This document shows positions 23,184 to 44,406 of a DNA stretch of 64,000 nucleotides, piece after piece. Position 1 is the stretch's first letter, and every line of letters starts with the position of its first letter. The position numbers and the translations under genes were made by a program. Origin of the DNA: Paracoccus sp. (in: a-proteobacteria) (GTDB taxonomy: Bacteria; Pseudomonadota; Alphaproteobacteria; Rhodobacterales; Rhodobacteraceae); contig JBEBVF010000001.1 of the NCBI GenBank assembly GCA_040392885.1, positions 27,505 through 91,504 on the forward strand. The letters run 5' to 3'. The notes below the pieces were generated by a model. The model was not told the DNA's origin. It ran no database searches and saw nothing but the letters and a program-made list of their open reading frames with translations.

Positions 23184-24359
23184 ATGCCCCACATGGTCGA
23201 GCTTGTCGACGATCTCGGACGCCTCGGGGATATCGGACCACAATGGGCAGAGCTGCACGCCGCGGCGGGCGGCGGGCCGTTCTCCTCGGCCGAATGGCTG
23301 GCGGCCTGGGCCGCGGCCTATGGCGGTCAGGGGGCGGCGCCCTGCATCGGGCTGGCCTGGTCCGGCGGGCGGCTGCTGGCCGGCATGCCGCTGGGGCTGC
23401 GGCGCGGGCGGGTCTCGACGAGGGGGCCGCGCGTCGGCAAGCTGGTGATGCTCTGCGACGAGCGAGCCGGGTTTCACGAGGTCCTCGCCCTTCCCGGCCC
23501 CGAGGGGCAGGCCGCGGTGGCGGCGCTGCTGGAGGGCTGTCTGGCGCGGGGCGGCTGGGAGTTGGCCGACCTGAACCCGGTTCTGGGCTCGGCCGCGCTC
23601 GACGGGCTGGCGGCGCGCGCGCAGGCGCAGGGCCTTGCCGTCTGGCGGCGCGAGGAGATCCGGCGCGCGGTCTGCGACCTGTCGGCCGGCTGGCAGGGCT
23701 ATCTGGCGCGGCGCAGCGGCAACTTTCGCAAGTCGATCCGCGTGGCGCGCAAGCGGGTCGAGGCGGAGTGGGGCACGCTGCGCATCCTCCGCGGCGGCGA
23801 GCCCGATGCCGATGCCGTGCTGGAACGGGCGCTGGCCGTGTCGGCGCGCTGCTGGAAGGCGCGGATGGGCACCGATATCGGCTCGAATCCGCGGGTGCGC
23901 GCCTTCATGACCGAGATCTGGACCCGGTTCTCGGCCCGCAAGGCGGCGCGCATCCTGCTGCTCAGCATCGGCGGCCGCGATGCCGCAAGCTGTTTCCTGC
24001 TGCGTTCCGGCAATCGCGAATACGGGTTCATCACCGATTTCGACGAGGATTTCGCCGCGCTGTCGCCGGGGCGTGTCATCGTCTCGCATGCGCTGGAAAC
24101 CGCGGCGGCCGACGGGATCGCGGTGTTCGACATGATGCGGCTGACCCCGTTCTGGGAGCGCTTTGCCGATGAGATCCAGAGCTTCGAGCGGCTGCGCCTC
24201 TGCCGGCGGTTCGGGCTGGCCTGGCTGTGGCTGTCGGTCGAGGAACGCGCCCGGCCGCTGGGGCGCGAATTGCGAAAACGTTACCGGCGGCGCAGCCATA
24301 CCCGGATAGCATTCAAGGACAGGTCCAGCGAGAGGGAGCGCAGCGATGAGGATGCGTGA
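23184..24359 (+). CDS. CelD/BcsL-type GNAT acyltransferase (HfsK-like), copy 1
   Basis: GPFSSAEWLAAW, CDLSAGWQGYLARRSGNFRKSIR, FDEDFAALSPGRV, FDMM; Arg-rich C-terminus. Confidence 0.8.
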   Translation: MPHMVELVDDLGRLGDIGPQWAELHAAAGGGPFSSAEWLAAWAAAYGGQGAAPCIGLAWSGGRLLAGMPLGLRRGRVSTRGPRVGKLVMLCDERAGFHEVLALPGPEGQAAVAALLEGCLARGGWELADLNPVLGSAALDGLAARAQAQGLAVWRREEIRRAVCDLSAGWQGYLARRSGNFRKSIRVARKRVEAEWGTLRILRGGEPDADAVLERALAVSARCWKARMGTDIGSNPRVRAFMTEIWTRFSARKAARILLLSIGGRDAASCFLLRSGNREYGFITDFDEDFAALSPGRVIVSHALETAAADGIAVFDMMRLTPFWERFADEIQSFERLRLCRRFGLAWLWLSVEERARPLGRELRKRYRRRSHTRIAFKDRSSERERSDEDA

Positions 24360-25542
24360 TTGGCCGCCGATGCGCCGCGCCGGCCGCATCGGCCTGGCAC
24401 TGGCGCTGCTCGCCGCCCCGGCGGCGGCCGAGACGCTGACCATGGAGCCGGGCGACACGGTGGCGGTGTCGGTGCTGGGGCGCGCGGACCTGAGCGGCAG
24501 CTTTACCCTGCGCTCGGACGGCACGATCTCGATGCATGTCATCGGCGCAACGAAGGCGGCGGGCCTGACCGAGGCCGAGCTGGAGGACAGTCTGGAGGCG
24601 CTGCTGACCGGCGAAATGCAGCTTCCCTCCTCGGTCACCGTCTGGGTGGACAGCTGGCGGCCGGTCTATGTGCTGGGCGGCGTGGTGGCGCCGGGCGCCT
24701 TCGACTATCGGCTGGGCATGACGGTCGAGCAGGCGGTGGCGCTGGCCGGCGGCTTCGATCTGGGCACCGTGACGGGTTCGAGCAGCCTCAGCATGCGGGT
24801 GGTGGATCAGGCCGCCACGCTGGACGAGATCGGCCTGCGCCTGACCGAACTGTCGGTGCGGCGCGCCCGGCTGGAGGCCGAGGCCGCCGAACTCGACAGC
24901 TTCGCCGGACAGGCCGGCGGCGAGGGCGCGGCGGCCGCGATGACGGCCGAGCAGCAGCGCCTGTTCGAGAGCCGCGGGCAGGTGGTGCAAAACCGGCTGG
25001 AGGCGGCGGACGAGGTCAAGGTCCTGGCCGGAAACGAGGCCGATTCGCTGGCCGCGCAGCGCGAGTTGCTGAGCCGGCAGATCGCCGAGCAGGAGGCCAG
25101 CGTCGCGGACCTGCAATCGCTGTTCGACAAGGGGCTGGCCAGTTCCGAACGGCTGCGCGAGGCGCGGCGCGGGCTGACCGCGGACCGCATCGAACTGATG
25201 ACCGCCGCCAGCTTCGAGGCGCGGGCGCGTCAGGAGGTGGCGGCGGCCGATGCCTCGGTCAGCGATTTCATGACCGGCCGCCAGCGCGACATTGCCGAGG
25301 AACTGGCCAATATCGGCAGCCAGCAGCGCGCCGCCGAGCAGGAACTGGCCGCCGCGCAGCATTTCCTGGCCGAATTCGGCCCGCGCGTCGGCTATCTCGA
25401 CGGGGAGCTGGGACCGCCGGTGTTCCGCGTCACCCGCCGCAACGGGGCGGCGACCGAGCTGCTGGAACTGGCCGCCACCGACCCGCTGCGCCCCGGCGAT
25501 CTGGTCGAGGTGGTACGCGAGCCGGCTCAGCCCACCGAGTGA
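24346..25542 (+). CDS. Polysaccharide export protein (OPX; Wza/ExoF-like)
   Basis: Signal peptide, PGDTVAVSV, DGTISMHVIG, VYVLGGVVAPGAFDYR, coiled coil, LRPGDLVEV. Confidence 0.88.
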   Translation: MRMRDWPPMRRAGRIGLALALLAAPAAAETLTMEPGDTVAVSVLGRADLSGSFTLRSDGTISMHVIGATKAAGLTEAELEDSLEALLTGEMQLPSSVTVWVDSWRPVYVLGGVVAPGAFDYRLGMTVEQAVALAGGFDLGTVTGSSSLSMRVVDQAATLDEIGLRLTELSVRRARLEAEAAELDSFAGQAGGEGAAAAMTAEQQRLFESRGQVVQNRLEAADEVKVLAGNEADSLAAQRELLSRQIAEQEASVADLQSLFDKGLASSERLREARRGLTADRIELMTAASFEARARQEVAAADASVSDFMTGRQRDIAEELANIGSQQRAAEQELAAAQHFLAEFGPRVGYLDGELGPPVFRVTRRNGAATELLELAATDPLRPGDLVEVVREPAQPTE

Positions 25543-27530
25543 CCGGCTGCCGCCGCGGCGGGGCCCCGCCCGGCCAGCCGCGCCAGGATGGCGAGGTTGC
25601 GGCTGTTCTCCTCGGGCGTCGAGATCGGCAACAGGAAATAGCGCTGCTTGTAGAATGCCTTCTCGCCCAGATAGATGCCCTCCTCGGCAAAGACCTCGAC
25701 CACCCGTGTCAGGGTATCGGGCAGCTCCACCAGCATGAAGGGTGCCTGGCTGGGCACCACGTCCAGCCCGAGGCCGGTCAGCGCGCCGGCCATGCGGCGA
25801 CGCTCGGCCGTGGTGGTGTCGAAGATGTGCTGCTGATGGGCGGTGGCGCCGAGGGCGGCGGTGGCCGCCACCTCCGACAGGCGCGAGATGGAAAAGATGC
25901 GCTCGCCGCGCTTGAGCCATTCGACATGTTCCGGCCGGCCATAGGCATAGCCGACCCGCGCCCCGGCCAGCGCATAGAACTTGGAGAAGGTGCGCAGGCC
26001 GAGGATCGGCCGGGTTTCGGTGTCGATGAGGTCGCGGGCGGTCACCGCCTCGGGGTCGTCGACATATTCGGCATAGGCCTCGTCCAGCAGGATCGGGATG
26101 CTGTCGGGCACCATGGCGAGGAAGCGGGCGAAACCGGCCTTCTTCAGCACCACCCCTTCGGGATTGGAGGGCGAGATCAGATAGATCAGCCGCGTCGCCG
26201 GGCCGACCGCCGCCGCCACCGCATCGAGGTCGTATTCAAAGCCCGCGCCGGTGCGGCGCAGCGGCACCATGGTCGCATCGAGCGCCCGCTTGCCGACCAG
26301 CATGTTGAAGCCGAACCAGCCCGGCCTGGCCGATACCACCTTGTCGCCGGGCCGGGTCAGCATTTCCAGCAGCCGGTCGAGGATCTCCCACGAGCCGTTG
26401 CCGATGGCAAAGCAGTCGGAGTCCAGCCGCATCCTCGCCGCCAGCGCGGCGCGCAGCGCGCCATGGGTCTCGTCGGGATAGACCGCGGCGAGGCGCGGCG
26501 TCGTCGCGGCGCCCAGCGCCGCCATCACCTCCGGCGCGGCGCCGTAATGGTTCTCGGCCCGGTCATAGATGGTGAAATCGGTATCGGTGCGGGCAACGGT
26601 GCGGCCGTTATGGACATAGACGGGATAGGTGAAGGCCGGCACCTGAGCGATCGGGGTGGCGGTGTGCAGCTCGGCCTCGGCATCGGCCAGGAGCCGCCAG
26701 GCCGAAAGGCTGCGCCCGGAGACGAGGGCCGCCGGCGCGCTGGCCACCCGGATGAAGGCCGGCAGCAGCGAATCGGGTTCCGGCAGCAGGCTGGCCTTCA
26801 GGGTGCCCAGGGTGCGCTCGGTCATGCCGGTATGCACGCTGCCCAGCCGCAGAGTGGTGACGACGATGCCCGAAGCGGCCGCTTCGGCGGCCAGCTGCAT
26901 GGTCAGCCCCTCCAGCCCGTGCTTGGACACCGCATAGGCGGAATGGCCGGGCTGCGGCCGCTCGACCGCGCCGGTCGAGACATTGATGATCCGGCCATGG
27001 CCTTGGGGCAGCATGACCCGCAACGCCGCCTGGGCGGCCCGGAAGGCCCCGCCCAGATTGGCATCGAGGACCGCCATGAACTCGGTGTCCGGCAGATCCG
27101 CGAGGACGGGATGGCCCGCCTCGGCAATGCCGGCATTGTTGATCAGGATGTCGATACCGCCGAGCCGGTCGGCGACCTCGGCAAAGGCGCGCCCGACCTG
27201 ATCGGCGCGGGTCAGGTCGGCGGCGACGGCGAAGGCCCCGCCGCCGATGGCGCTGGCCGCGGCCTCGCCCTCGGCGGCGGAGCGCGACAGGATGGCCACG
27301 CGGCAGCCCTGCGCGGCCAGCCCCCGCGCCACCGCCAGCCCGATGCCGCGATTGCCGCCGGTTACCACGACGCGGCGGCCGGCGAGGCCCGGCTCCGGGT
27401 CCGCGGGCAGCGGCGCCGCCGGTCCAGCGCGGCCGCGCCGCTTGCGCCGGCCGCGGCCGGTGGCCTTGCCGAGCAGATCGAGGGTGACGGCGATATTGCG
27501 GCGCAGGCGGCGCCCCAGGCGGCTGGTCAT
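25527..27530 (-). CDS. SDR oxidoreductase / class I-II (HisC-like) PLP aminotransferase fusion
   Basis: N-half: VVVTGGNRGIG, LINNAG, INVSTG, YAVSK. C-half: YPD, GNGSWE, SPSNPEG, LLDEAYAEY, RTFSKFYALAGARVGY. One uninterrupted frame. Confidence 0.82.
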   Translation of the reverse strand: MTSRLGRRLRRNIAVTLDLLGKATGRGRRKRRGRAGPAAPLPADPEPGLAGRRVVVTGGNRGIGLAVARGLAAQGCRVAILSRSAAEGEAAASAIGGGAFAVAADLTRADQVGRAFAEVADRLGGIDILINNAGIAEAGHPVLADLPDTEFMAVLDANLGGAFRAAQAALRVMLPQGHGRIINVSTGAVERPQPGHSAYAVSKHGLEGLTMQLAAEAAASGIVVTTLRLGSVHTGMTERTLGTLKASLLPEPDSLLPAFIRVASAPAALVSGRSLSAWRLLADAEAELHTATPIAQVPAFTYPVYVHNGRTVARTDTDFTIYDRAENHYGAAPEVMAALGAATTPRLAAVYPDETHGALRAALAARMRLDSDCFAIGNGSWEILDRLLEMLTRPGDKVVSARPGWFGFNMLVGKRALDATMVPLRRTGAGFEYDLDAVAAAVGPATRLIYLISPSNPEGVVLKKAGFARFLAMVPDSIPILLDEAYAEYVDDPEAVTARDLIDTETRPILGLRTFSKFYALAGARVGYAYGRPEHVEWLKRGERIFSISRLSEVAATAALGATAHQQHIFDTTTAERRRMAGALTGLGLDVVPSQAPFMLVELPDTLTRVVEVFAEEGIYLGEKAFYKQRYFLLPISTPEENSRNLAILARLAGRGPAAAAAGHSVG

Positions 27531-28690
27531 GATGTTTCGTCCCTGACGGCGGCCGGGCGGTCGCGGGGGCGCAGCCCGTCGCGGACCGGCCCCGTCAGCC
27601 GGTCGCAGATATCCTCGAAGGCGCGGACGGCGCCCGGGATCAGATAGGGGGTCACCCGCTCGGCGGCGGCCTGCCGCCTGGCCGGGTCGTCGGGCTCGAG
27701 CAGCGCGGCGTGCAGCGCCGCGGCCATGGCCGGCACGTCGCCGGGCGGCACCAGCCGCCCCAGCCTGCCGTCTGCCAGGATGTCGCGCGGGCCGGGGCAA
27801 TCGCTCGCCACCACTCCGGCGCCGGCGGCCAGCGCCTCGACGAGGACATTGCCGAAACCCTCGCGCCGCGAGCCGAGGGCCAGGACCCGGGCCCGCGCCA
27901 GCTCCGGCATCAGCGAGGCGGTGACGCCCGCCAGCGTGATGCGGCCGGCCATGCCCAGCCGGGCGATCAGCGCGGCCAGCCGCGCATGGTCGGGGCCCTC
28001 GCCGAATATCTTCAGATGCAGTTGCGGATGGTCGGGGACCAGGCGGGCCACGGCCTCGATGACGGTCTCATGGCCCTTGTCAGGCACCAGCCGGCCCGCC
28101 GCGACGACCCGGCCGGCGATGCGCGGCGGCGGCGCCCGCGCCAGCCCGGCCAGCAGCTCCGGGGCCAGCACGGGATTGGGCGCGACCGCATGCGCCAGCC
28201 CGTGCAGGCCCAGCGTGTCGATCCAGTCCCGGGCCAGGGTTTCGGTCGGGGCCACCAGCAGGTCCGCCCGCGGATAAAGCGCCCGCACCAGCCCGCGCCG
28301 CGCCCGCGGCCGGCGGGCCGAGGCCAGATAGGCGGCGGCCTGGGTATGTTCGCTGACGATGATGCGCGGACGCCGGGCGCCGCGCCAGGGCAGGGTGGCA
28401 AGCAGCACGGCGATGTTCATCGCATTGGTGCCGGAATAGACCAGATCGACCCGCTGTTGCGCCAGCCAGCGCGCCAGCACCGGCCCCAGCAACAGCGCCC
28501 GCCGCCCGCCGGCATCATGGACCGGAATGTCGGCAGGGAGGCCGTCCAGCAGGGCGCCTTCGGCTTTCCTGAGGAAAAGCAGCGGCGTGAAACGCTCGCG
28601 ATCGAGGCCGACGAGCAGGCGCAACACCACATGCTCGATCCCGCCGGTTTTCAGATGCGGCAACAGGAAGGCAATACGAGTCTTGCGCAT
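27527..28690 (-). CDS. GT4 glycosyltransferase
   Basis: GGIEHV, GRLVPDKG, SRREGFGNVLVEALAAG. Confidence 0.92.
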   Translation of the reverse strand: MRKTRIAFLLPHLKTGGIEHVVLRLLVGLDRERFTPLLFLRKAEGALLDGLPADIPVHDAGGRRALLLGPVLARWLAQQRVDLVYSGTNAMNIAVLLATLPWRGARRPRIIVSEHTQAAAYLASARRPRARRGLVRALYPRADLLVAPTETLARDWIDTLGLHGLAHAVAPNPVLAPELLAGLARAPPPRIAGRVVAAGRLVPDKGHETVIEAVARLVPDHPQLHLKIFGEGPDHARLAALIARLGMAGRITLAGVTASLMPELARARVLALGSRREGFGNVLVEALAAGAGVVASDCPGPRDILADGRLGRLVPPGDVPAMAAALHAALLEPDDPARRQAAAERVTPYLIPGAVRAFEDICDRLTGPVRDGLRPRDRPAAVRDETS

Positions 28691-28812: not shown

Positions 28813-29616
28813 ATGCAGAGATTTTCTGATCATGTGGTCGGGATGGTGCGAGGCAGCCTGAACCTCTCGCGGGTTTCCGCGCTGGCGGCGGTGGCGCTGC
28901 TGTCGCTGGCCACCAATGGCGTGGCGGCGGCGGCCCTGCCGGCCTGCGCGACGCCGCAGCTCTCGGGGTTCGAGACCGGCAGCGATCCCGCCGAGGGTTT
29001 CTCCAGAACCCAGTTGCAGCGCGGCGAGATCACCCTGACCGCCGACCCGGTGGACGGCGGCAACCGGGCCGCCTTCATGAGTGCCGAGCGCAAGCGCGGC
29101 GGCGAGGTGGGCAAGTCCGACCTGATCCTCGCCTTCTCGCCCGTCGGCGCCGGCCGCACCATCGAGATGGGCGGGCGGTTCCTGTTTCCGGCCGAGTCGC
29201 GGCTGGACAGCCTGATTCTGATGGACCTGGAATGCGCCTCCTGCGGGCTCGATACCAATCCCGGCATCCGCCTCTATCTGCGCGACGGCCTGTTGCGGGT
29301 GGATCGCTCCAAGATCGGCATCGAGGAGCCGTTCCTGCCCGGCGTGCCGCTGGCCCTGAAGACCGGCGGCTGGCATGAGATCAGGTGGGAGGTCACGCTG
29401 GGCATCGGCGCCGCCGGGCGCAGCCGGGTGTTCGTCGACGGCAGGCAGGTCCTGGACGCCCAGGGCACGACGCTGCTGAGCCAGGCGGTCGTCAAGCAGT
29501 TCGCCCCGATCAAGGTGCGCGAGCAGGCCGACCGCTTCCAGATCGGGCTGACGGCGAATTCCAACACCACCCGGCAGAGCCTGTATCTGGACGATGTGAG
29601 CATCTGCGCCCGATAG
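28813..29616 (+). CDS. Secreted polysaccharide lyase-like protein (beta-jelly-roll/LamG-like)
   Basis: Signal peptide; LMDLEC, PGIRLYL, GGWHEIRWEV, RVFVDG, YLDDV pattern of jelly-roll lyase-type proteins; lies inside the EPS locus. Confidence 0.6.
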   Translation: MQRFSDHVVGMVRGSLNLSRVSALAAVALLSLATNGVAAAALPACATPQLSGFETGSDPAEGFSRTQLQRGEITLTADPVDGGNRAAFMSAERKRGGEVGKSDLILAFSPVGAGRTIEMGGRFLFPAESRLDSLILMDLECASCGLDTNPGIRLYLRDGLLRVDRSKIGIEEPFLPGVPLALKTGGWHEIRWEVTLGIGAAGRSRVFVDGRQVLDAQGTTLLSQAVVKQFAPIKVREQADRFQIGLTANSNTTRQSLYLDDVSICAR

Positions 29617-29620
29617 GCCC

Positions 29621-30694
29621 TCAGGCCGAGGTGCAGGCCCGGACCATGCGCGCGATGGCGGGTTCGGTCACCCCTTCATGGATCGGCAGGCGCAGGACGT
29701 GGCGTTTCAGCGCCGCGGCCTCGGGGAAGCCCGACAGGTCGATGGCCGGGTGAAAGCGCCGCCAGAAGCGCACCGGCTCGATCCCGGCGCGGGCAAGAGC
29801 GGCAAACACCCGGTCCGGCTCGGCGGTCCAGAGGGGGAAATAGGCCGGGCAGGCGCCCGCGGGCAGGACCTCGATCAGCGGCCGCAACGCGGGCATGGCC
29901 GGAAGCCGGGCGGCCAGCGCGCGATAGTTCCGCCGTCGCACGGCGGCCACCCGCTCGTGATCGACATGCCCGAGCATGAAGCGGGTAATGCGCGAGGCGT
30001 GATCGCGCCGCGCCTCGTCACCGAAACCGGCGACGGCATCCCAGCGGTCGAGATCCGCGCCGCCCCGATCCCGCGGCCCGCTGCGGACCCGGCGGCGCAA
30101 GGCATTGGCCGAAAGCGATTTCAGTGCCGCCAGCGTGTGCCGCAAGGGCGGACGGCCCAGCGCGGGCAGCACCGCGTCCCGGCGCATCCACAGCGCGCCA
30201 CCATCCGGCACCCCCAGCGTCTTGACCAGCGAGAACACCGCCATGTCGCCGGCGCGTCCCAGCGGCGCCCCATCCGCGCCCCGCGAATACAGGCCCAGCG
30301 CCAGATCCTCGACCAGCAGCGCACCGGCCGCGCCGGCCAGATCGGCCAAAGCTGCCAGCGGCTGTTCCCGGCCGAAATAATGGATGACATGGATGGCGCC
30401 GCCACCCGCGCGCAGCAGCCGCGCCACATCGTCGAGATCGGCGCTCAGGTCGCGCCCCAGCCGATAGGGCACCGGCCGGCCGCCGGCGGCCAGGATGGCA
30501 TCAACCTCGGAGCCGCAATGCCATGCCGGCACCAGCACCCGCGCGCCACCCCGCAACCCGAGCGCACGCAGCCCGGCCCAGATCGCGGTGCGGCCATTGG
30601 CGGTCAGATGCGTGCGGGCATCGCCGAAGGGAAATGGCACCGGGCTGCGGCCGAAGGGGCCGGGCGCCGGGGATTTGGCGATGATACGGGTCAC
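29621..30694 (-). CDS. Short DegT/DnrJ-type PLP enzyme
   Basis: GRTAIWAGL, VLVPAWHC, VIHYFG, VEDLAL, FSLVKTLGVPDGG (PLP lysine), LRLPIH; GTG start overlaps the flippase stop (GTGA). Confidence 0.75.
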   Translation of the reverse strand: MTRIIAKSPAPGPFGRSPVPFPFGDARTHLTANGRTAIWAGLRALGLRGGARVLVPAWHCGSEVDAILAAGGRPVPYRLGRDLSADLDDVARLLRAGGGAIHVIHYFGREQPLAALADLAGAAGALLVEDLALGLYSRGADGAPLGRAGDMAVFSLVKTLGVPDGGALWMRRDAVLPALGRPPLRHTLAALKSLSANALRRRVRSGPRDRGGADLDRWDAVAGFGDEARRDHASRITRFMLGHVDHERVAAVRRRNYRALAARLPAMPALRPLIEVLPAGACPAYFPLWTAEPDRVFAALARAGIEPVRFWRRFHPAIDLSGFPEAAALKRHVLRLPIHEGVTEPAIARMVRACTSA

Positions 30695-32307
30695 GGCGTG
30701 CCCCCGCGGCCGAGCCGGCGTGCCAGCCGCCGTGTCAGCGCCCGGACCTCGGGGAGGCCGGTCAGCGCGGCGCTCAGCAGAAAGGTCAGCCCGCCCGCGG
30801 CACCGGACAGGCCAAGCGCCGCCAGCATCCGCAGCCGGCCGGCATCGCCCGCCGGCAGCACCGCCTCGCGCGTCAGCCAGATGGCGATGCCGGCCAGCGC
30901 CGAGGCCAGCGCCAGGCTGACGAAGGGCCGCAGCTCGCCCACGCGGACCGGCGCGCCGCTGTGACGCGACAGCCAGATCCACAGCATCACGAGGATGCCG
31001 GCCATCGACAGCAGCGCGCCGACCGGCACCGCGACGAGGCCCAGCCGCGGCACGAAAGCCAGGTCGAAACCGATGCGCAGGGCCAGCCCCAGCGCCGTCG
31101 ATCCGGCGATCATCGCCAGTTGCGGCAGCCTTCCATCGGCAAAGATCGCCGAGACCAGCGACCCCAGCACGGCATTGATCGGCATCAGCAGGGCCAGGAT
31201 GGCGAATACCGCGGCGGTGATGCGCGCATCCTCGGCGGTGAAGCGGCCATGCTGGAGGACGACATGGATGAACGGCCCGCCCAGCAGCACCAGGCTGACC
31301 GCCAGCGGCAGGATGAAGAACAGCGAGGTGCGGATGGAATCGCGCACCAGCACGCGAAAGGCGGCGCCGTCGCGCTCGGCCGAGGCGATGGCGAAATGCG
31401 TGTAATAGACCAGAACCACGCTGTTGGTGACCAGCCCCGGCGTCATGTTCACCATGCGCTGCGCAAAGTCGTAGGCGGCGACCATGCCCTCGCCGGTGGT
31501 CGAGGCGAAGGCGATGTCGATCCAGCCGGCGCCGATGATGTGGAACTGCGCCACCAGCATGGCGACGATGCGATGGCGGCCCAGCTCGGGCGGCGGCTGC
31601 GCCGGGGCGGGCACGACCGGGGGGTGGTCGCGCGCGAATACCCGCCGCCCGGCCAGGCCGAAGGCGACGCCCATCACGACCGTGCCCAGCAGGGTCGCGA
31701 CCGCCAGCCCGCCAAGGCCGAACCCCGCCACCGGCACCAGCAGCAGGGCGAGGAGAATCGCCAGCCGCGGCGCCAGCCGCGCAAGCACCGGCAGCGAATA
31801 GAGTTGCAGCGCGTTCAGCGTGGCCCCGGACAGCGCCGTGACCGCCGAGATCGGCATGCCCAGCAGCAGGATGCGGAAATACAGCACCGCCCTGTCCACC
31901 CGGTCGGCATCAAAGCCCGGCGCCAGCAGCCGCACGATCGGCTCGGCCAGCAGCAAGCCGAGGGCGGTTGCCGCCAGGCTGACCAGCAGCAGCCGCCGGG
32001 CGCTGACGGAAAGCCGGAGGCGCAAGACCTCCATCCCCTCGTTGCGGGCGACCCGGACCAGCGGCGGTACCTGCAGCAGGTGAAAGGCCCGCTCCAGCCC
32101 CATGGCGAGGTTGGAGGTCACCCGCCGGCCGAGGAAATAGGCATCCGTCGCCGCCGAGGCCCCGTAAAGGGTGGCGATGCCCATGGCAATCAGCAGCCCG
32201 AGGACCGAACCCAGCCCCTTCAACAGCGTGACGCTGACGATGCTCAGCATGGTCCGGGGCGCACCGCGGCCGGTATCGGGACCGGCCGGGTGCGGCGCGG
32301 CCGTCAT
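30691..32307 (-). CDS. MOP-superfamily flippase (MurJ/Wzx-like)
   Basis: LYGASAATDAYF, LLAPGF, YDFAQR, LQHGRFTAED; 12-14 TM segments. Confidence 0.85.
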   Translation of the reverse strand: MTAAPHPAGPDTGRGAPRTMLSIVSVTLLKGLGSVLGLLIAMGIATLYGASAATDAYFLGRRVTSNLAMGLERAFHLLQVPPLVRVARNEGMEVLRLRLSVSARRLLLVSLAATALGLLLAEPIVRLLAPGFDADRVDRAVLYFRILLLGMPISAVTALSGATLNALQLYSLPVLARLAPRLAILLALLLVPVAGFGLGGLAVATLLGTVVMGVAFGLAGRRVFARDHPPVVPAPAQPPPELGRHRIVAMLVAQFHIIGAGWIDIAFASTTGEGMVAAYDFAQRMVNMTPGLVTNSVVLVYYTHFAIASAERDGAAFRVLVRDSIRTSLFFILPLAVSLVLLGGPFIHVVLQHGRFTAEDARITAAVFAILALLMPINAVLGSLVSAIFADGRLPQLAMIAGSTALGLALRIGFDLAFVPRLGLVAVPVGALLSMAGILVMLWIWLSRHSGAPVRVGELRPFVSLALASALAGIAIWLTREAVLPAGDAGRLRMLAALGLSGAAGGLTFLLSAALTGLPEVRALTRRLARRLGRGGTP

Positions 32308-35126: not shown

Positions 35127-36416
35127 ATGCCGGACGGAGCCCTCCCCCCGTGCGCTGTCCCTCTGTCGCAGGGCACCGTCCGGGCCGCGCGCGACCGCAT
35201 CGCCCTGCGCCGGCGGGCGGTGGCGATCTGGTCGGCGGGGGTGCTGGCGATCCTGGCCGCAGGGGTTGCCGCCCGGGCCACCGGGGCGCCGGGCGGACTG
35301 GCGGGGGGCGGGGTACTGGCCGGGCTGGCGGCATGGCGGCTCTTGCAGGACCGGTTCATGCGCACCACCGGCGGCATTCCCGTCCTGACCTGGCACAGCG
35401 TCAGCCGCGATGCCGGCTGGCTGCCCTGGGCCGAGGCGACCTCGGTCACGCCCGAGACGCTGGACCGGCAACTGGCCCTGCTGCGCCGGATGGGCTGCCA
35501 GAGCATGGACAGCGTGGAATTCGTCCGCCGCCGCATGGCCGGCGCGACCGTGCCGCCCGAGACGGTGATCCTGCATTTCGACGACGGCTATCTGGACAAC
35601 TGGGTGGCCGCCGCCCCGCTGCTGGCGCGGCATGACATGCGGGCCAGCCTGTTCGTCTCGCTGGATTTCATCGCACCGCCGCGACCGGTGCCGGCGACGA
35701 TCCTCGACCCCGGCGCGGTGCTGCGCTGGGACGGCTATCTGTCCTGGGACGAGCTGCGGGCCCTGGATGGCGGCGCCTTTGGCGGGGCATTCGGGATCGA
35801 GCCCCATGGCGTCGATCATGGCCGCGTGCCCGTCGGGCCGAGGGTGGTGGATCACGTCGACCCCGGCAACTGGCGGCGGCTGGCCTGGGTGCAATGGGCG
35901 GCGATGCCCGGCGACAAGCACGACTGGTATGTCTCCGACGCGCCGCCGGCGCGGGGCCATGGCACCCCCGTCCATGAAAGCGCCCCGGCGCTGGCCGCCC
36001 CGGCCTGGAGCCCGGGCGGCGGCGAGGACGAGGCCGCCTATAGCGCCCGCCTGTTGCGCGACCTACTGGCCTGCCGGCAGGCCTTCCTGACCCGGCTCGG
36101 CCGGGCGCCGAACATCTTCTGCTGGCCGCAGAACCGCGCCAGCGATGCCGGCCGCGCCATCGCCGCCGAGACCGGCTATCTGGCGACCACCGCCGGGCAT
36201 GGCACCAACCGCGCCGACGAGGACCCCGCCATCCTTTCGCGCGTCCATGTCGGCGAGCGGGTGGCCGGGTTCCGCTGGCCGGCGGCGGACGACCTGTTCC
36301 TGCGCGCCACCATCCTCGGCTTTCGCGGCAATCACTACTGGTATTTCCCGGTGCTGGCGCTGTCGCTGCTGCGGCGGGCGGTCACCGCCCTGCGGGTGGC
36401 GGGAGGTGGCGCATGA
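35127..36416 (+). CDS. Membrane-anchored CE4 polysaccharide deacetylase
   Basis: N-terminal hydrophobic segments, PVLTWHSV, HFDDGYLDN, HGVDH, FCWP. Confidence 0.85.
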   Translation: MPDGALPPCAVPLSQGTVRAARDRIALRRRAVAIWSAGVLAILAAGVAARATGAPGGLAGGGVLAGLAAWRLLQDRFMRTTGGIPVLTWHSVSRDAGWLPWAEATSVTPETLDRQLALLRRMGCQSMDSVEFVRRRMAGATVPPETVILHFDDGYLDNWVAAAPLLARHDMRASLFVSLDFIAPPRPVPATILDPGAVLRWDGYLSWDELRALDGGAFGGAFGIEPHGVDHGRVPVGPRVVDHVDPGNWRRLAWVQWAAMPGDKHDWYVSDAPPARGHGTPVHESAPALAAPAWSPGGGEDEAAYSARLLRDLLACRQAFLTRLGRAPNIFCWPQNRASDAGRAIAAETGYLATTAGHGTNRADEDPAILSRVHVGERVAGFRWPAADDLFLRATILGFRGNHYWYFPVLALSLLRRAVTALRVAGGGA

Positions 36417-39014: not shown

Positions 39015-40165
39015 GCCTCTTGCTGTTCTGGCTGCTGCTTTTCCTCGTCCTGTGGTCGCTTTTCGGCTATGGGCTGGTCTGGATGGGGCTGGCGCGGCTG
39101 TTCGGCCGCAGGGAGGCCCCCCTGCCCGAGACCCCGCTGCGCGTGACCATGCTGATCGCCGCGCGCAACGAGGCCGCGATCATCCGCCACAAGCTGGAAA
39201 CCGTGCTGGCGCAGGATACCGGGCCGCATCGCCTGGACATCCTGGTGATCTCGGACGGGTCCGAGGACGACACCCTCGCCCAGGCGCTGTCGCTGGGCGC
39301 GCCGGAGGTCGCCGCCTTCCAGACCGCGACCCATGGTGGCAAGGCGCGGGCACTCACGGCGGGGCTGGCGCGCATCACCGCCGATGTGGTGGTGTTTTCC
39401 GATGCCAACAGCCTGCTGGTGCCGGGGGCGCTGCGCCATCTGCTGCGCCCCTTTGCTCGCGCGCAGGTCGGCGGCACCTGTGGCCAGCCGCAGCCGCAGG
39501 CCGCGCGCGGCGGCTGGATCGCCCGCGTCGAGGCGCTGTTCTGGCGCTATGACAGCGGCCTGAAGGCGGCCGAAAGCGCGCTGGGCGGGGCGGTGTCGGC
39601 GCAGGGCACGCTTTACGCGATGCGCCGCGCGCTGGTGCCGGCGGTCATCCCCGACGCCATGGCCGATGATTTCTACATCTCTGCGCAGGCACCGGTGGCC
39701 GGCCGGCGGCTGGTTCTGGCGCCGCAGGCCGTCGCCATCGAGGCCGTCACCGCCCGCACCGGCGACGAGTTCATGCGCCGCGTGCGCTCGACCGAGCGGG
39801 GCTGGCGCGCACTCTGGGCGATGCGGGGCCTGATGAACCCGTTCCGGCACGGGCTCTATGCGCTGCAACTGATCTGCCACAAGCTGCTGCGGCGGCTGGT
39901 GGCGTTCCTGCTGCCGCTGCTGCTGGCGGTCAATATGCTGGTGGCGGCGGAAGGCTGGTTCCCGGCCGCCACGCTGGCGCTTCAGGTCGCGGTCTATCTG
40001 CTGGCGGCGGCGGCGATCCTGCTGCCGGGCGCGCGGCGCCTGCCGGGGGCGGGACAGGCGGCGTTCTTCGTGCTGGGCCATGTTGCCATGGCCTGGGGCA
40101 TCATCCGGGCGGGCCTCGGCGTGCGCTCCAGCCGCTGGGTGCCGGTGCGGGAGGACGCGCCATGA
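39011..40165 (+). CDS. GT2 glycosyltransferase (membrane, PgaC/HfsG-like)
   Basis: IAARNE, SDGSED, GKARAL, FSDANS, DDFY, RRVRS; N- and C-terminal TM segments. Confidence 0.9.
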   Translation: MSLLLFWLLLFLVLWSLFGYGLVWMGLARLFGRREAPLPETPLRVTMLIAARNEAAIIRHKLETVLAQDTGPHRLDILVISDGSEDDTLAQALSLGAPEVAAFQTATHGGKARALTAGLARITADVVVFSDANSLLVPGALRHLLRPFARAQVGGTCGQPQPQAARGGWIARVEALFWRYDSGLKAAESALGGAVSAQGTLYAMRRALVPAVIPDAMADDFYISAQAPVAGRRLVLAPQAVAIEAVTARTGDEFMRRVRSTERGWRALWAMRGLMNPFRHGLYALQLICHKLLRRLVAFLLPLLLAVNMLVAAEGWFPAATLALQVAVYLLAAAAILLPGARRLPGAGQAAFFVLGHVAMAWGIIRAGLGVRSSRWVPVREDAP

Positions 40166-41295
40166 GCCGGCTGCCGGAGACGCGGGTGCTGACCGACTGG
40201 CCGGCCTTCGAGGCGGTGGCGGGCGACTGGGCCGCGCTGCATGCGCGCGCGGGCGGCGCCCTCTATTCCTCGCATCACTGGCTGGCGGCGATGCAGGCTG
40301 CCTTCGGCCTGCCCGGCGCCATGGCCTTCGTCACCCTCTGGCAGGGCGGGCGCATGGTGGCGGCGGCGCCGATGGTGGCCCGGCCGGAACGGCTGTCCAA
40401 GCTGGCGCCGTTCTATCGCCCGCCGGTCCTGCGGCTGATGGCCTGCAAATATTCCGGCTTTGTCGAGATGCTGGCGGAGACCGACACCCTGCGCGCCCGC
40501 CTGGCCGAGGCGGTCCATGATGTGGCCGCCGGCCGGGTCATCGCGCTCGACCCGCTGAAGGCGGGCGCGGCCACCGACCAGATCCTGACCGTGCTGGGCG
40601 AATGCGGCCGCACCGTCACCCAGGCGCCGCGTTTCCGCAGCGTCACCATCCCGGCCCGCCGCACCAGCGCCGAGCATCTGGCAGGCCGCAAGGCCGGGTT
40701 CCGCAAGGGGCTGCGCAAGGCGCAGCGGCGGCTGGAGGCATCGGGTGGCCGTTTCGAGGAGGTGCGCCACCTCGACCCCGCCATGATGGCGCGCATCGAG
40801 GCGATCTCGGCGCGCTCGTGGAAAAGCGCGGCCGGCACCAGCCTTGCCGCCGATCCCGGCAATGCGCGCTTCCTGGCCGAGATCAGCACCCGGCTGGCGC
40901 CGGATGCCATGATCCTCAGCATCGACGGGGTGGACCGGGCCTTTGCCGCCTCGATCCGCTACGGCATGACGGATTACATGATCTGGACGGAATTCGACGA
41001 GACGGTGGCCGAGCTGTCGCCCGGCCGGCTGGTGGTATGGGAGCTGATCTGCTGCGTTCTGGACCGGCGCGACGACCGGGCGGTGCAGGATCTGGTGCGG
41101 CGCACGCATTTCACCGGCGAGATGGGCGACGAAGGCTATGCCCTGCTGGCGGCGCGGGCCATGCCGCGGCGGGGCGCTGCGCATCTGCTCGGCGCTGCCG
41201 AGGCGCGGCTGCGCGCCATCGCCGGCCACCGCCGTTTCGGCCGCCGCAAGGGGGTGCGGCGGGCCGATGTCAACATGCTGGAGGCGGAGGCGTGA
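40162..41295 (+). CDS. CelD/BcsL-type GNAT acyltransferase, copy 2
   Basis: LYSSHHWL, RKAGFRKGLRKAQRRL, FDETVAELSPGRL; Arg-rich C-terminus. Confidence 0.78.
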   Translation: MSRLPETRVLTDWPAFEAVAGDWAALHARAGGALYSSHHWLAAMQAAFGLPGAMAFVTLWQGGRMVAAAPMVARPERLSKLAPFYRPPVLRLMACKYSGFVEMLAETDTLRARLAEAVHDVAAGRVIALDPLKAGAATDQILTVLGECGRTVTQAPRFRSVTIPARRTSAEHLAGRKAGFRKGLRKAQRRLEASGGRFEEVRHLDPAMMARIEAISARSWKSAAGTSLAADPGNARFLAEISTRLAPDAMILSIDGVDRAFAASIRYGMTDYMIWTEFDETVAELSPGRLVVWELICCVLDRRDDRAVQDLVRRTHFTGEMGDEGYALLAARAMPRRGAAHLLGAAEARLRAIAGHRRFGRRKGVRRADVNMLEAEA

Positions 41296-42374
41296 GCGGG
41301 GGCGAGATCCGCGTCGACATCAGCCGGTCCCTGTCCGCTGCCGAGGCCGGGGAGGCCGCCGCCTTCCTGGAGGCCAGCCCCGCCGCCAGCCACCTGCAGC
41401 GCCCGGACTGGCCGGACTATCTCGATCCGGCGCCGCGGCACCGCTATCTGGTGCTGCGGGCGCGGGCGGGCGGGGCACTGGTCGGGTTGGCGCTGGCGCG
41501 GCTCGGCCGGCTGGCGCCGGGCTTTCACCTGGCCGTCCTGCGCCGCGGCCCGGTCACGCATGCGGTGGCCGACCTGGCGCGGGTGGTGCCGGCCATGGCG
41601 CAGGCGCTGCGCGGGGAGGGCGTCTGCTCGCTGGTCGTGAATCCGCGCTGGCAGGAGGCCGAGGCCGAGGCCGCCACCGCCCTGCTGGCCGGGCTCAGCG
41701 CGCAGGAGCTGCCGCGCGCCGGCCAGTCCATGCACCGCGCCACGCTGCTGGTCGACCTGTCGGGCACGCCCGAGGCGCTGACCGCGCGCCTCAAGCCGCG
41801 CTGCCGGCGCCAGATCAACCGCGCGGCCGCGCTCGGGCTGGAGGTGCGCCCGGCCGCCAGCCTCGACGAGGTGTTGGCCTTCGAGCCGGTGTTTCGCGAT
41901 TTCCACCGCCGGCGCGGTCTGGGCACCGAGGCGATTCCGCCGCCGGCGCAGCAATGGGCACTGACCCGGGATCGCGGCGCCTTGCTGCTGGGCTATTACC
42001 GGGGGCGGCCGGTCTGCGGCCATGGCATGCTGGCCGATGGCCCGCGCGCCACCTGGCTGTCCCTCGCCAGCGCCGAGGGCCTGCACGACCTGCCGCATGA
42101 CTATGCGCTGATCTGGCAGGCGCTGCTGGCCGCGCAGGCGCAGGGCCTGCGCTGGTTCGACATGGCCGGCGCGCCCAGCCGGCGCGATGCCGACCCGGCC
42201 GGCCCCGACCGGGGCCAGATGAACCGCCAGCAGTTCAAGACCGCCTTCGCTCCAGCCCATGTCGAGCTGGTGCCGATGATGGCGCTGGGGCTGCGCCAGC
42301 CTGCCCATGACCTGCTGTTCGGCCTGCGCCAGCACTATCGCGGCTGGAAGGCCGGGCGGAGGCCGCAGCCATGA
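41292..42374 (+). CDS. FemAB/FemX-like transferase
   Basis: HLQRPDW, LRRGPV, TLLVDL...LKPRCRRQINRA..LGLEVR, WQALLAA...G.RWFDMAG, QFKTAF; GTG start overlaps previous stop. Confidence 0.75.
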   Translation: MSGGEIRVDISRSLSAAEAGEAAAFLEASPAASHLQRPDWPDYLDPAPRHRYLVLRARAGGALVGLALARLGRLAPGFHLAVLRRGPVTHAVADLARVVPAMAQALRGEGVCSLVVNPRWQEAEAEAATALLAGLSAQELPRAGQSMHRATLLVDLSGTPEALTARLKPRCRRQINRAAALGLEVRPAASLDEVLAFEPVFRDFHRRRGLGTEAIPPPAQQWALTRDRGALLLGYYRGRPVCGHGMLADGPRATWLSLASAEGLHDLPHDYALIWQALLAAQAQGLRWFDMAGAPSRRDADPAGPDRGQMNRQQFKTAFAPAHVELVPMMALGLRQPAHDLLFGLRQHYRGWKAGRRPQP

Positions 42375-43291
42375 GCCGCCCGGTCCCGCTGTTCATCCTC
42401 GGCCTGCAACGCTCCGGCACCACCTTTGCCGCCAATCTGCTGGCCGCGCATCCACAGATCGCCGCCGTGGCCCATGCCCGCCATCGCGGCGTGCATGAAA
42501 GCGTGTTCTTCTCGCATTTCGCGCGGCTGTTCGGGGACTGGTCGGAGGCCGGGGCACGGGCCGCGGCGGTGGCGGCGTTCCTCGACAGCGACTATTTTCG
42601 CCTGACCGGGCTGGATGCCGCGGCCACCGGCGCGGCGATGCAGGCGGCGCAAACGCCCGGCGCGGCGTTCCGGCAGGTGATGGACACCCTGGCGCAGCAG
42701 GGCGGCCGCCGGGTCTGGATCGAGAAATCCCCCCATCACACGCTGCTGGCCGACGAGATCGCGGATATGCTGCCCGATGCGCATTTCCTGTGCATCGCCC
42801 GCGAGACGGCGGATTTCACCCGCTCGCGGCTCTGGGCCTATGGGCGGCAGCCGCCGCGCTATCCGGGGCGGGCGAGGGTGATCCTGCGCGCCTGCCTGTC
42901 GAACGCGTTCCACCAGCGCTTCATGGCCGGCCTGCCGGTGCGGATCGGGGCGGACCGGGTGCATGCCGTGGGCTATGCGGCGCTGGCACGCGACCCGGAT
43001 GCGGCACTGGCGCCGCTGCTGAGAGTGCTGGGGCTGGCGCCGCTGGCCGGGAGGCGGCCGGATTTCGCGGCCAATAGCAGCTTTGCCAGCGCGGCCAGCC
43101 GCGCCGCCGCGCTGGGGCGCAGCGACCGCGCGCTGATCGCCGCCGGGGCGGCGCTGGCCGGCGCCGTGCCGCAGCCGCTCCTTGCCGCCTTGCAGCGCCG
43201 GGCGGCGCGGCGGCGCCCCCGCGCGTTCCCCGCCTGGGTGCGCACCCCGGACATCTCCGGCCCCGCGCCGGGACAGGAGGGCAGCCGATGA
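42371..43291 (+). CDS. PAPS-dependent sulfotransferase
   Basis: LFILGLQRSGTT (5'-PSB loop), ESVFF, WIEKSP.H, R...D...S (3'-PB region). Confidence 0.85.
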   Translation: MSRPVPLFILGLQRSGTTFAANLLAAHPQIAAVAHARHRGVHESVFFSHFARLFGDWSEAGARAAAVAAFLDSDYFRLTGLDAAATGAAMQAAQTPGAAFRQVMDTLAQQGGRRVWIEKSPHHTLLADEIADMLPDAHFLCIARETADFTRSRLWAYGRQPPRYPGRARVILRACLSNAFHQRFMAGLPVRIGADRVHAVGYAALARDPDAALAPLLRVLGLAPLAGRRPDFAANSSFASAASRAAALGRSDRALIAAGAALAGAVPQPLLAALQRRAARRRPRAFPAWVRTPDISGPAPGQEGSR

Positions 43292-44406
43292 CCCCGCCAC
43301 CCCGCCCGCGCCCGCTGCGGATCGAACGGATCACCGCCATCGCGGATCTCGACGCCCTGGCGGCGCCCCTGGCCGAGCTGGCCGGGGCGGCGGATGCGCT
43401 GGTCTTCAGCCATCCGGCCTTTTTCCTGCCCTGGAGCCGCGCGGCCATCGCCAATGGCCAGCGTCCGGACTGCCTGGCCCTCTATTCCGGCACCACGCTG
43501 TGCGGTTTCCTGCCGTTCTTCGCCCGCCGCGACCGGCATGCGCTGCTGGGGCGCGTGCTGGGGCCGCCGCGCTATGGCTCGTCACCGCCTTTCGACCTGC
43601 TGCTGGCCGGGGTGGACGAGACAGCCGCCATCGCCGCGCTGGGCGCCGAGGTCCGGCGCCATTCATGGATCGGGCAGGACATCCGCGCGGATGTGGCCGG
43701 CTCGCGCCTCGGCGCGGGCTGGGCGGACTGGTTCGCCGGCCGGGGCCATGCCGTGGAGCGGGCTGCCGGGCCGGGTTACTACCTGGTCCGCAATGCCGGC
43801 AGCGTGGCACAGTTCAAGGCCGCCCTGCCGGGCCGGCAGCGCCGCGAATGCGAACGGCACCTGCGGCGGCTGGCCGGAATCGGCGGTTTCCGGCTGGTCC
43901 GTTCGGGCGATGCGGTCGGCGGGGCGCTGGAGGCGATGCAGGGCATCGTCATGCAAAGCTGGAAGGGCAGCGCCGAGATGGCCCGCCGCGGCTGGACCAT
44001 GCTGCATTCCGTGGCGCTGTCGATGGCCGAGGCCGGCATGCTGCGCCTGTGGCTGGTCGAGGTCGAGGCGCGGCCCATCGCCTATCTGATGGAATTCGAG
44101 GACCGCCACCGCCATCGCCACGCCTTCCACAACGCCCAGGTCGAGGCCGACGACCATCTCGGCCCCGGCAAGTCGGTGATCTATACCAGCCTGTGCGCCG
44201 CGCAGGAGGAGGGCGTTCCGGTCTATGAGTTCTGGGGCTATCGCGACTATCTGCGCAGGTTCTCGAACGGGATTCGCGAGACCCGCTCGGTCCGCATCGA
44301 CAATCCGGGGTTGCTGCAACGGCTGCAACGCAGCCTGCTCCCCGCCCGGCGCGCGGGCGGCGCCGATGCCGTGGGGACCGGGGGGGACGGCCCGTGCGCC
44401 GGTTGA
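43288..44406 (+). CDS. CelD/BcsL-type GNAT acyltransferase, copy 3
   Basis: VFSHPAFFLPW, RQRRECERHLRRL, LWLVEVEARPIAY, HLGPGKSV, YEF.G. Confidence 0.78.
   Translation: MTPPPRPRPLRIERITAIADLDALAAPLAELAGAADALVFSHPAFFLPWSRAAIANGQRPDCLALYSGTTLCGFLPFFARRDRHALLGRVLGPPRYGSSPPFDLLLAGVDETAAIAALGAEVRRHSWIGQDIRADVAGSRLGAGWADWFAGRGHAVERAAGPGYYLVRNAGSVAQFKAALPGRQRRECERHLRRLAGIGGFRLVRSGDAVGGALEAMQGIVMQSWKGSAEMARRGWTMLHSVALSMAEAGMLRLWLVEVEARPIAYLMEFEDRHRHRHAFHNAQVEADDHLGPGKSVIYTSLCAAQEEGVPVYEFWGYRDYLRRFSNGIRETRSVRIDNPGLLQRLQRSLLPARRAGGADAVGTGGDGPCAG

Follow-up and report, generated by a model that had tools for sequence, protein, structure and literature searches.

In a 64,000-nucleotide stretch of DNA from a Paracoccus sp. 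(contig JBEBVF010000001.1, positions 27,505 to 91,504 of the forward strand; hereafter the window), an exopolysaccharide (EPS) locus encodes a protein, P0001, in which a classical short-chain dehydrogenase/reductase (SDR) is joined to a pyridoxal phosphate (PLP)-dependent domain related to histidinol-phosphate aminotransferase (HisC). The fusion is real, and the residues conserved among its homologues establish it as a redox and PLP enzyme family predicted to be bifunctional, with both catalytic sets intact. We further regard it as established, on alignment grounds, that the PLP active site has been remodelled away from phosphate and carboxylate substrates. The core clade of the family is dedicated to polysaccharide loci. 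With a confidence somewhat short of even, we propose that the fusion would convert a hydroxyl group of a neutral glycan precursor at the membrane first to a carbonyl and then to an amine, which Gcn5-related N-acetyltransferase (GNAT) proteins would subsequently N-acylate.

The first-pass annotation of the window, made from its letters alone, had described a single 667-aa frame with complete SDR and fold-type I motifs that is translationally coupled to a GT4 glycosyltransferase gene. Each of these points was borne out. The motifs that it named are all found in P0001 (GGNRGIG at residues 58-64, NNAG at 131-134, YAVSK at 199-203, DEAY at 483-486 and RTFSK at 513-517), and Pfam recognises both domains, with adh_short (PF00106) matching residues 53-239 (E 8e-48; 162.9 bits against a cut-off of 26.6) and Aminotran_1_2 matching residues 325-626 (E 1.6e-36). 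PF01041 (DegT) gave no match in P0001 at E <=0.01 in the same database. The coupling to the GT4 gene takes the form of an ATGA overlap between its stop codon and the start codon of the fusion gene. A longer frame of 757 aa, which begins at an upstream in-frame TTG, was rejected because homologues start at the same methionine as P0001 (MTSRLGRRLRR).

Also confirmed was the earlier observation that a redox and PLP fusion, and not an extended-SDR/DegT pair, lies in a polysaccharide locus: the fusion represents a genuine, conserved family. A search of 5.8 billion proteins returned about 65 full-length two-domain homologues of 650-676 aa, sharing 30-89% identity, in the complete genomes of Leisingera thetidis and Thiohalobacter sp. 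IOR34, in Frigidibacter and Mesorhizobium mediterraneum, and in many metagenome-assembled genomes (MAGs). The family is nevertheless small: an exhaustive HMMER pass over 1.84 billion representative proteins yielded about 45 two-domain clusters at 50% identity. Within the host family, 3 of 301 genomes contain the fusion gene, and one genome of the same genus is without it. The database names seen for homologues were only 'SDR family NAD(P)-dependent oxidoreductase' or 'histidinol-phosphate aminotransferase'. The first-pass annotation had allowed that the architecture might belong to a known, characterised enzyme; protein-database and literature searches found none that combines an SDR with a HisC-like domain, and a literature search on SDR-aminotransferase fusions, FemAB proteins in EPS and bifunctional dehydrogenase/aminotransferases found no paper on the architecture.

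The window derives from a fragmented MAG of 208 contigs and one database relative, P0073, is frameshifted, both of which would favour an assembly error or a frameshift joining two adjacent genes, an origin that the first-pass annotation had singled out for checking; it is refuted, and in our judgement virtually excluded, by the roughly 65 independent full-length homologues, two of them in complete genomes, by Logan contigs from four independent and unrelated metagenomes (sediment, insect, landfill and sludge) that span the junction at 26559-26660 with substitutions only and no indels, and by an inter-domain linker that is conserved and confidently modelled.

P0001 begins with a basic amphipathic helix, kept in 61 of 64 aligned members with a median net charge of +7 and a hydrophobic moment (muH) of 0.62, which may serve as a tether to the membrane interface or to a docking partner. 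The linker that follows is variable across the alignment, and residues 28-45 have a predicted local distance difference test (pLDDT) score below 50 in the AlphaFold2 (AF2) model. The SDR domain carries a TGxxxGxG motif (57-64), the NNAG motif and the catalytic tetrad N158-S185-Y199-K203. In the 64-member alignment, T57, G58, G62, G64, N131, A133, N158, S185, Y199 and K203 are invariant or nearly so; among the tetrad, N158, Y199 and K203 are present in every member and S185 in 61. R61 occupies the Gly-rich motif in 45 of the 64 members and R83 follows strand beta-2 in at least 90%, with no acidic residue there; by the textbook rule, these arginines form a signature of the NADP(H) type, which makes NADP(H) the putative cofactor. 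The inter-domain arm contains a family-specific arginine, R324, adjoining an ENxxG motif.

In the PLP half, N456, D483, Y486, S516, K517 and R525 are conserved among the same members, with D483, Y486 and S516 found in 64/64 and K517 in 63/64. Five of these residues (N456, D483, Y486, K517 and R525) align with Asn157, Asp184, Tyr187, Lys217 and Arg225 of the aromatic aminotransferase (ArAT) of M. tuberculosis, and by this alignment R525 corresponds to the arginine that binds the PLP phosphate. AF2, run on the family alignment, modelled the whole chain with a pLDDT of 91.8 and a predicted TM score (pTM) of 0.87, and the two domains are therefore predicted to stand in a fixed arrangement. At the far end of the protein, the Ala/Gly-rich C-terminal tail shows an in-frame length variant: the landfill-metagenome contig (run X3) is 3 bases shorter at window position 25546. 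A separate observation concerns an orthologue of 54% identity from a different genus of the family (G057:C3:17064-19034; L040), which is reported with one in-frame TAG and may be a pseudogene or carry a sequencing error.

The anchoring arginines of the PLP domain

In aminotransferases of subfamily I-beta, two C-terminal arginines (Arg322 and Arg330 in ArAT, Arg337 and Arg346 in HspAT) bind histidinol phosphate by its phosphate, or amino and keto acids by their carboxylates, and the second of them, ArAT Arg330, is among the residues conserved across all homologues (PMC4703992). We examined both positions in a 70-sequence alignment that covers 40 fused-clade members and 30 stand-alone HisC-like relatives. 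The first arginine is present in 28 of the 30 stand-alone relatives but in none of the 40 fused proteins, while the second is present in all 30 relatives, as well as in the genome's own CobD, and again in 0/40 of the fused clade. Together with the replacement of the HisC pocket aspartate by Trp381, the loss of both arginines fits a neutral substrate better than one that bears a phosphate or carboxylate. In a maximum-likelihood tree of aminotransferase domains, with CobD as the outgroup, the fused domains form one clade (SH-aLRT 99) inside the HisC/ArAT radiation, indicating one fusion event that was followed or accompanied by loss of the anion anchors.

Consistent with the tree, the best NCBIfam matches of the C-terminal half of P0001 are HisC models, all of them below their curated cut-offs (175.8 bits against 276.55 for TIGR01141; 197.5 against 374 for NF002878), and CobD scores lower still (TIGR01140, 127.6 bits against a cut-off of 290.55 in NCBIfam; 57 bits in a PDB search). 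Foldseek placed Rv3772 ArAT (PDB 4r2n, TM 0.87) and several HisC entries closest in fold, with CobD (1lc5) lower at a TM score of about 0.81. The lost arginines and the below-cut-off scores therefore put P0001 outside both HisC and CobD, though it clearly comes from that stock. With HisC and Rv3772 ArAT it shares the fold, about 31-38% identity, the ENxxG and YP motifs and the PLP-binding set of Lys, Asp, Tyr, Asn and PLP-phosphate Arg; in contrast to them it is fused behind an SDR, is without both anchoring arginines, has Trp at the pocket Asp/Val position, and is encoded in EPS loci as opposed to his or aromatic amino-acid operons. The HisC-like fold is likewise common to CobD (1lc5; TIGR01140) and the fusion, but the arginine pair is kept in CobD and lost in the fusion.

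The genome additionally encodes two ordinary HisC paralogues elsewhere, one of which adjoins a prephenate-dehydrogenase-like open reading frame (ORF), and a genuine CobD on another contig (C143; 306.4 bits), and all three retain both arginines. A housekeeping HisC role was rejected given these two paralogues and the rarity of the fusion gene in the family, and a CobD identity was rejected because the score falls below the cut-off, a real CobD is present, and CobD keeps both arginines and forms the outgroup. These results weaken two suggestions of the first-pass annotation: a HisC/CobD-like reaction on a small phosphate or carboxylate precursor sits poorly with the absence of both anchoring arginines from every member, and a decarboxylation-reduction sequence loses further ground, as the domain nests in the aminotransferase radiation and not with CobD, of which the genome has its own copy. 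Regarding an anchor that might replace the lost pair for an amino-acid donor, R324, R273 and R386 are candidates; R541 was dropped as a family-specific replacement since the ordinary HisC paralogues of the genome also have Arg there.

Polysaccharide setting and proposed function

We compared nine EPS-linked loci from alpha- and gammaproteobacteria that hold homologues at 33-54% identity, or the gene itself: those of Leisingera, Thiohalobacter, a gammaproteobacterial MAG, Frigidibacter, two metagenomic contigs, G057, G152 and this window. All nine are polysaccharide clusters (Wzx/Wzy/Wza or ABC type) with one to four PF13480 genes, which encode HfsK/FemX-like GNATs, and in G152 four tandem GNAT genes lie directly beside the fusion. 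Genomes with the fusion have 4-5 PF13480 copies, compared with 1-2 in most of 98 other sampled family genomes, six of which have at least four. A deacetylase (CE4 or PIG-L) was found at four of seven loci and a sulfotransferase at three. In loci of the Thiohalobacter type, the fusion is accompanied by a single GNAT, with no deacetylase or DegT gene within 10 kb, an arrangement that can be read as a minimal pair of 'amine maker' and 'amine acylator'. Sulfotransferases accompany the fusion in Thiohalobacter and, farther off, in Frigidibacter.

Variants of the architecture also occur. In Frigidibacter, the fusion gene overlaps at its end with a flippase gene, and in P0227 (854 aa, on a 3.9-kb contig) a Polysacc_synt (Wzx) flippase precedes, in frame, the basic helix, the SDR and the start of the aminotransferase. 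P0227 is a single case, cut by the contig end, and could reflect a lost stop codon. Two further members, P0128 (942 aa) and P0145 (955 aa), carry an extra N-terminal extended-SDR domain ('Epimerase', of the nucleotide-sugar type). The classical SDR of P0145 is without TGxxxGxG and without the lysine of YxxxK, which looks as though the extra domain had assumed its role, and the gene for P0145 (L049 10001-12868) lies in a non-EPS setting with ankyrin and patatin genes.

On the basis of this setting, we propose that the fusion would act at the cytoplasmic membrane face during Wzx/Wzy-type EPS assembly. The SDR domain would, in its presumed direction, act on a neutral glycan precursor and oxidise one of its hydroxyls to a carbonyl. 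This precursor might be a sugar or polyol unit attached to a nucleotide or undecaprenyl carrier, plausibly the one that the co-translated GT4 adds. The PLP domain, of HisC descent, would then transaminate the carbonyl to an amine, and joining the two steps would both pull the unfavourable oxidation forward and stop the reactive carbonyl from escaping. Following a presumed hand-over, the HfsK/FemX-like GNATs would N-acylate or N-aminoacylate the new amine, along with amines provided by the deacetylase and the DegT-like enzyme.

In support of this proposal, both catalytic residue sets are invariant or nearly so in the 64 members, two variants carry an added extended-SDR domain, and the transaminase step in particular is favoured by a domain that is nearest to aminotransferases in sequence and fold, with CobD lower. 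The basic amphipathic helix, the flippase fusion of P0227 and the flippase overlap in Frigidibacter together point to the membrane as the site of action, with which the fusion is probably associated. The first-pass annotation had proposed that a non-sugar amine is made for polymer decoration; a redox and PLP enzyme dedicated to a polysaccharide locus is supported, and the GNAT, deacetylase, flippase-fusion and helix partners suggest rather that the amine would be placed on the glycan precursor itself.

Several points weigh against the proposal. PF13480 occurs in 97 of 101 family genomes and is thus near-universal, so that co-occurrence at the level of genomes is weak evidence and only clustering and copy number carry weight. 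The distant members P0145 and P0170 (28-30% identity) lie outside EPS loci, and the family is therefore not tied to EPS throughout. No nucleotide-sugar enzyme is shared beside the fusion: the neighbouring 'Epimerase' genes are GalE, Gmd-like or an unassigned extended SDR depending on the locus, and from such varying epimerase/dehydratase neighbours no common nucleotide-sugar precursor can be deduced. The NADP(H) signature of R61 and R83 is commoner in reductases, and the SDR may run reductively. Finally, binding of an amino-acid donor is hard to explain without the class-I arginine, and the domain could perform other PLP chemistry.

A different use of the two activities would be to turn a central metabolite into a free amine that is not a sugar, for instance serinol, an amino alcohol or an unusual amino acid, which another enzyme would then attach to the polymer. 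We consider this unlikely but worth weighing. Small polyols and hydroxy acids are common substrates of classical SDRs, the NCBIfam models that best match the SDR half are FabG, glucose 1-dehydrogenase and 3-hydroxybutyrate dehydrogenase, and the GNATs could attach the product. HisC/CobD-family enzymes are also associated with the C. jejuni HS:2 capsule, where published work confirms the decoration only. Against such a route, the Arg pair that binds phosphate or carboxylate is absent clade-wide, the conserved basic helix and the flippase fusion speak for a substrate bound to the membrane, and general Pfam scans of the examined loci, which involved no search aimed at these enzymes, showed no phosphatase, ATP-grasp or amidoligase.

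Alternatively, the enzyme might work in the reductive direction, a possibility to which we likewise give a low probability. The PLP domain would deaminate an amino compound or aminate a keto compound and the NADPH-dependent SDR would reduce a carbonyl, yielding a hydroxy- or amino-acyl donor for the GNATs; the acyl unit, which might be a hydroxy acid or a beta/gamma-hydroxy amino acid, would be put onto amino sugars freed by the deacetylase. R61 and the near-invariant R83 form a signature typical of biosynthetic reductases, deacetylases are present at the four loci noted above, and the GNATs must be supplied with an acyl donor. Bacterial amino sugars are known to bear N-acyl groups such as 3-hydroxybutanoyl and N-acetyl-homoseryl, which also counts for this route. 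The Thiohalobacter-type loci speak against it, as in the absence of a deacetylase or DegT gene they offer no obvious acceptor amine unless the fusion makes one. Furthermore, the loss of the carboxylate-anchoring arginine argues against amino- or keto-acid substrates, and the fusion has no conserved CoA-ligase or carrier-protein gene as a neighbour.

We think it distinctly improbable that the PLP domain is not an aminotransferase at all but a CobD-like decarboxylase, a racemase, an eliminase, a cyclodehydratase or a non-catalytic scaffold that dimerises the SDR. A near-universal class-I arginine has been lost, HisC-like scaffolds serve other chemistries (the GntC cyclodehydratase and PtaA are among the weak NCBIfam matches of one member), and the CobD model does reach 127.6 bits. 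That score, however, is far below the 290.55-bit cut-off that the real CobD of this genome passes with 306 bits, and CobD both keeps the arginines and forms the outgroup of the tree. The strict conservation of the PLP-binding and catalytic residues, with K517 in 63 and D483, Y486 and S516 in all 64 members, indicates that the domain is not a dead scaffold.

Relation to known systems

Two-enzyme pairs that carry out oxidation followed by transamination are known in glycan biosynthesis, including WbpB/WbpE, GnnA/GnnB and KdnB/KdnA (Kdo8N). In these pairs, a GFO/IDH/MocA or iron-dependent alcohol dehydrogenase (iron-ADH) oxidoreductase and a DegT-type aminotransferase are separate proteins. The logic that we propose for the fusion, from hydroxyl through carbonyl to amine for a cell-surface glycan, resembles that of these systems, but here a classical SDR is covalently joined to a HisC-type domain with no PF01041 match. 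Both folds are thus familiar and the proposed chemistry has two-protein precedents.

In C. jejuni HS:2, Cj1437 and Cj1436, which belong to the HisC/CobD family, make serinol phosphate and ethanolamine phosphate for glucuronate amidation. As proposed here for the fusion, these PLP enzymes have the dedicated task of equipping a surface polysaccharide with an amine. In a comparison made by description only, they differ in being stand-alone enzymes that use phosphate-ester substrates and have phosphatase and amidoligase partners, whereas P0001 is fused to an SDR and has no phosphate-anchoring arginine, and partners of that kind were not seen in general Pfam scans, no aimed search having been made. 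Decoration of the C. jejuni capsule with serinol and ethanolamine amides is documented (PMC11800397, PMC12409886).

HfsK of Caulobacter crescentus has been proposed to acylate amines that the deacetylase HfsH exposes on holdfast precursors, and homologues of HfsK are linked with EPS loci (PMC5362036). The conserved neighbours of the fusion are tandem-GNAT, FemX-like PF13480 proteins of the same family. No SDR-aminotransferase is listed for the Caulobacter holdfast locus as described (PMC5362036), in contrast to the locus of the window, which has four GNAT paralogues together with the fusion, a DegT-like gene and a sulfotransferase. We found no description of the combination of a classical SDR-HisC fusion, clade-wide arginine loss, a basic helix and systematic clustering with FemX/HfsK-like GNATs. 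It defines a well-delimited uncharacterised enzyme family and not a new principle.

The charge, adhesiveness and antigenicity of a bacterial surface polysaccharide depend on its amino and N-acyl substituents, and to our knowledge most of the enzymes that install non-standard substituents of this kind are unknown. If our proposal is correct, the fusion would represent a third independent hydroxyl-to-amine solution in glycan biosynthesis, beside the extended-SDR/DegT and GFO/DegT pairs. It would be built on the scaffold of a histidine/aromatic amino-acid aminotransferase without the hallmark class-I arginine, raising the question of how the amino donor is bound. The association with GNATs additionally gives a handle on HfsK/FemX-like proteins, whose donors and acceptors are unknown even in the Caulobacter holdfast. 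Cultured carriers of the fusion include Leisingera thetidis, Frigidibacter sp. MR17.14, Thiohalobacter sp. IOR34 and Mesorhizobium mediterraneum.

A more far-reaching version, which we think quite unlikely, is that the fusion would aminate a lipid-linked EPS repeat unit directly at the membrane and that the amine would prime a short peptide or oligo-acyl side chain, built by up to four FemX-like, possibly aminoacyl-tRNA-dependent transferases. If true, this would amount to a decoration of a Gram-negative exopolysaccharide in the style of a peptidoglycan bridge.

The EPS locus of the window

The fusion gene lies in a Wzx/Wzy-type EPS locus that extends from about 23.2 to 44.4 kb of the window (Table 1). 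Its assembly genes encode a priming Bac_transf phosphoglycosyl transferase, two GT4 and one GT2 glycosyltransferases and a MurJ/Wzx-type flippase, and it further contains genes for Wzy, a GNVR co-polymerase, a Wza exporter, a CE4/PgaB-like deacetylase, a sulfotransferase and a polysaccharide-lyase-like protein, as well as one divergent DegT-like gene and four PF13480 (Acetyltransf_6) genes. Two features of the order are conserved in G057 and Leisingera, namely the GT4 gene followed by the fusion and the GNAT-Wza block that faces them. The CE4/PgaB-like deacetylase could be a second enzyme of the locus able to expose an amine. According to the first-pass annotation, the fusion was not the usual pair of nucleoside diphosphate (NDP)-sugar epimerase and DegT aminotransferase; that holds for the fusion itself but is qualified for the locus by the divergent DegT-like gene two genes away.

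Table 1. Positions of the fusion gene, its parts and selected neighbours in the window
Feature	Coordinates	Strand	Remarks
Fusion gene (P0001)	25527..27530	(-)	667 aa, SDR + HisC-like PLP; TGA stop included
ATGA overlap, GT4 stop/fusion start	27527..27530	(-)	Translational coupling
N-terminal basic amphipathic helix (RRxRR), residues 2-28	27447..27527	(-)	AF2 helix, conserved
Linker, residues 29-48	27387..27446	(-)	Variable and disordered (AF2, alignment)
Classical SDR domain, residues 49-290	26661..27386	(-)	Includes conserved C-terminal tail 250-290
Inter-domain arm, residues 291-324	26559..26660	(-)	Equivalent to HisC N-terminal arm
HisC/ArAT-like fold-type-I PLP domain, residues 325-652	25575..26558	(-)	
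W381 codon, pocket position	26388..26390	(-)	Asp in HisC GSDE, Val86 in ArAT; Trp, Ser or Ala in family
K517 codon, PLP-binding (Schiff-base) lysine	25980..25982	(-)	63/64 members
G622 codon, first anchoring-Arg position (M. tuberculosis ArAT Arg322)	25665..25667	(-)	Never Arg in fused clade
L633 codon, second, near-universal Arg position (ArAT Arg330)	25632..25634	(-)	Class-I carboxylate/phosphate anchor
GT4 glycosyltransferase	27527..28690	(-)	Upstream of fusion, same operon
Polysaccharide-lyase-like gene	28813-29616	(+)	PF14099 below cut-off
Divergent DegT-like aminotransferase ORF	29621..30982	(-)	PF01041 56.7 bits, partial match
CE4/PgaB-like polysaccharide deacetylase	35127..36416	(+)	
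HfsK/FemX-like tandem GNAT 1 (Acetyltransf_6)	23184..24359	(+)	
HfsK/FemX-like GNAT 2	40162..41295	(+)	
HfsK/FemX-like GNAT 3	41292..42374	(+)	Also passes Pfam FemAB, 25.6 vs 24 bits
Sulfotransferase	42371-43291	(+)	Embedded between GNAT genes
HfsK/FemX-like GNAT 4	43288..44406	(+)	

Regarding the GNATs, a PDB sequence search with GNAT 1 gave no match at E <=1, and in NCBIfam the GNATs had weak BspF-like matches only. GNAT 3 is hidden within a longer ORF (40602-42374), bringing the total for the locus to four and not three, and the fifth PF13480 copy of the genome lies on another contig. The true start of the DegT-like ORF is probably near 30694. Its Leisingera orthologue is called as a 365-aa DegT gene, and the opposite-strand ORF at 29678-30964 of the window is a spurious antisense frame of the DegT-like ORF. 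Between the GT4 and DegT-like genes lies the polysaccharide-lyase-like gene, which has a counterpart of 52% identity at the same position in Leisingera. In the Thiohalobacter-type loci (L031 12573-16739; L045 11769-15731) the fusion is followed by a giant protein of about 1,350 aa with FG-GAP, ASPIC, beta-helix and hemolysin-type repeats, without counterpart in the window. Lastly, at 25527-25542 the fusion gene overlaps with the Wza gene, which is convergent to it.

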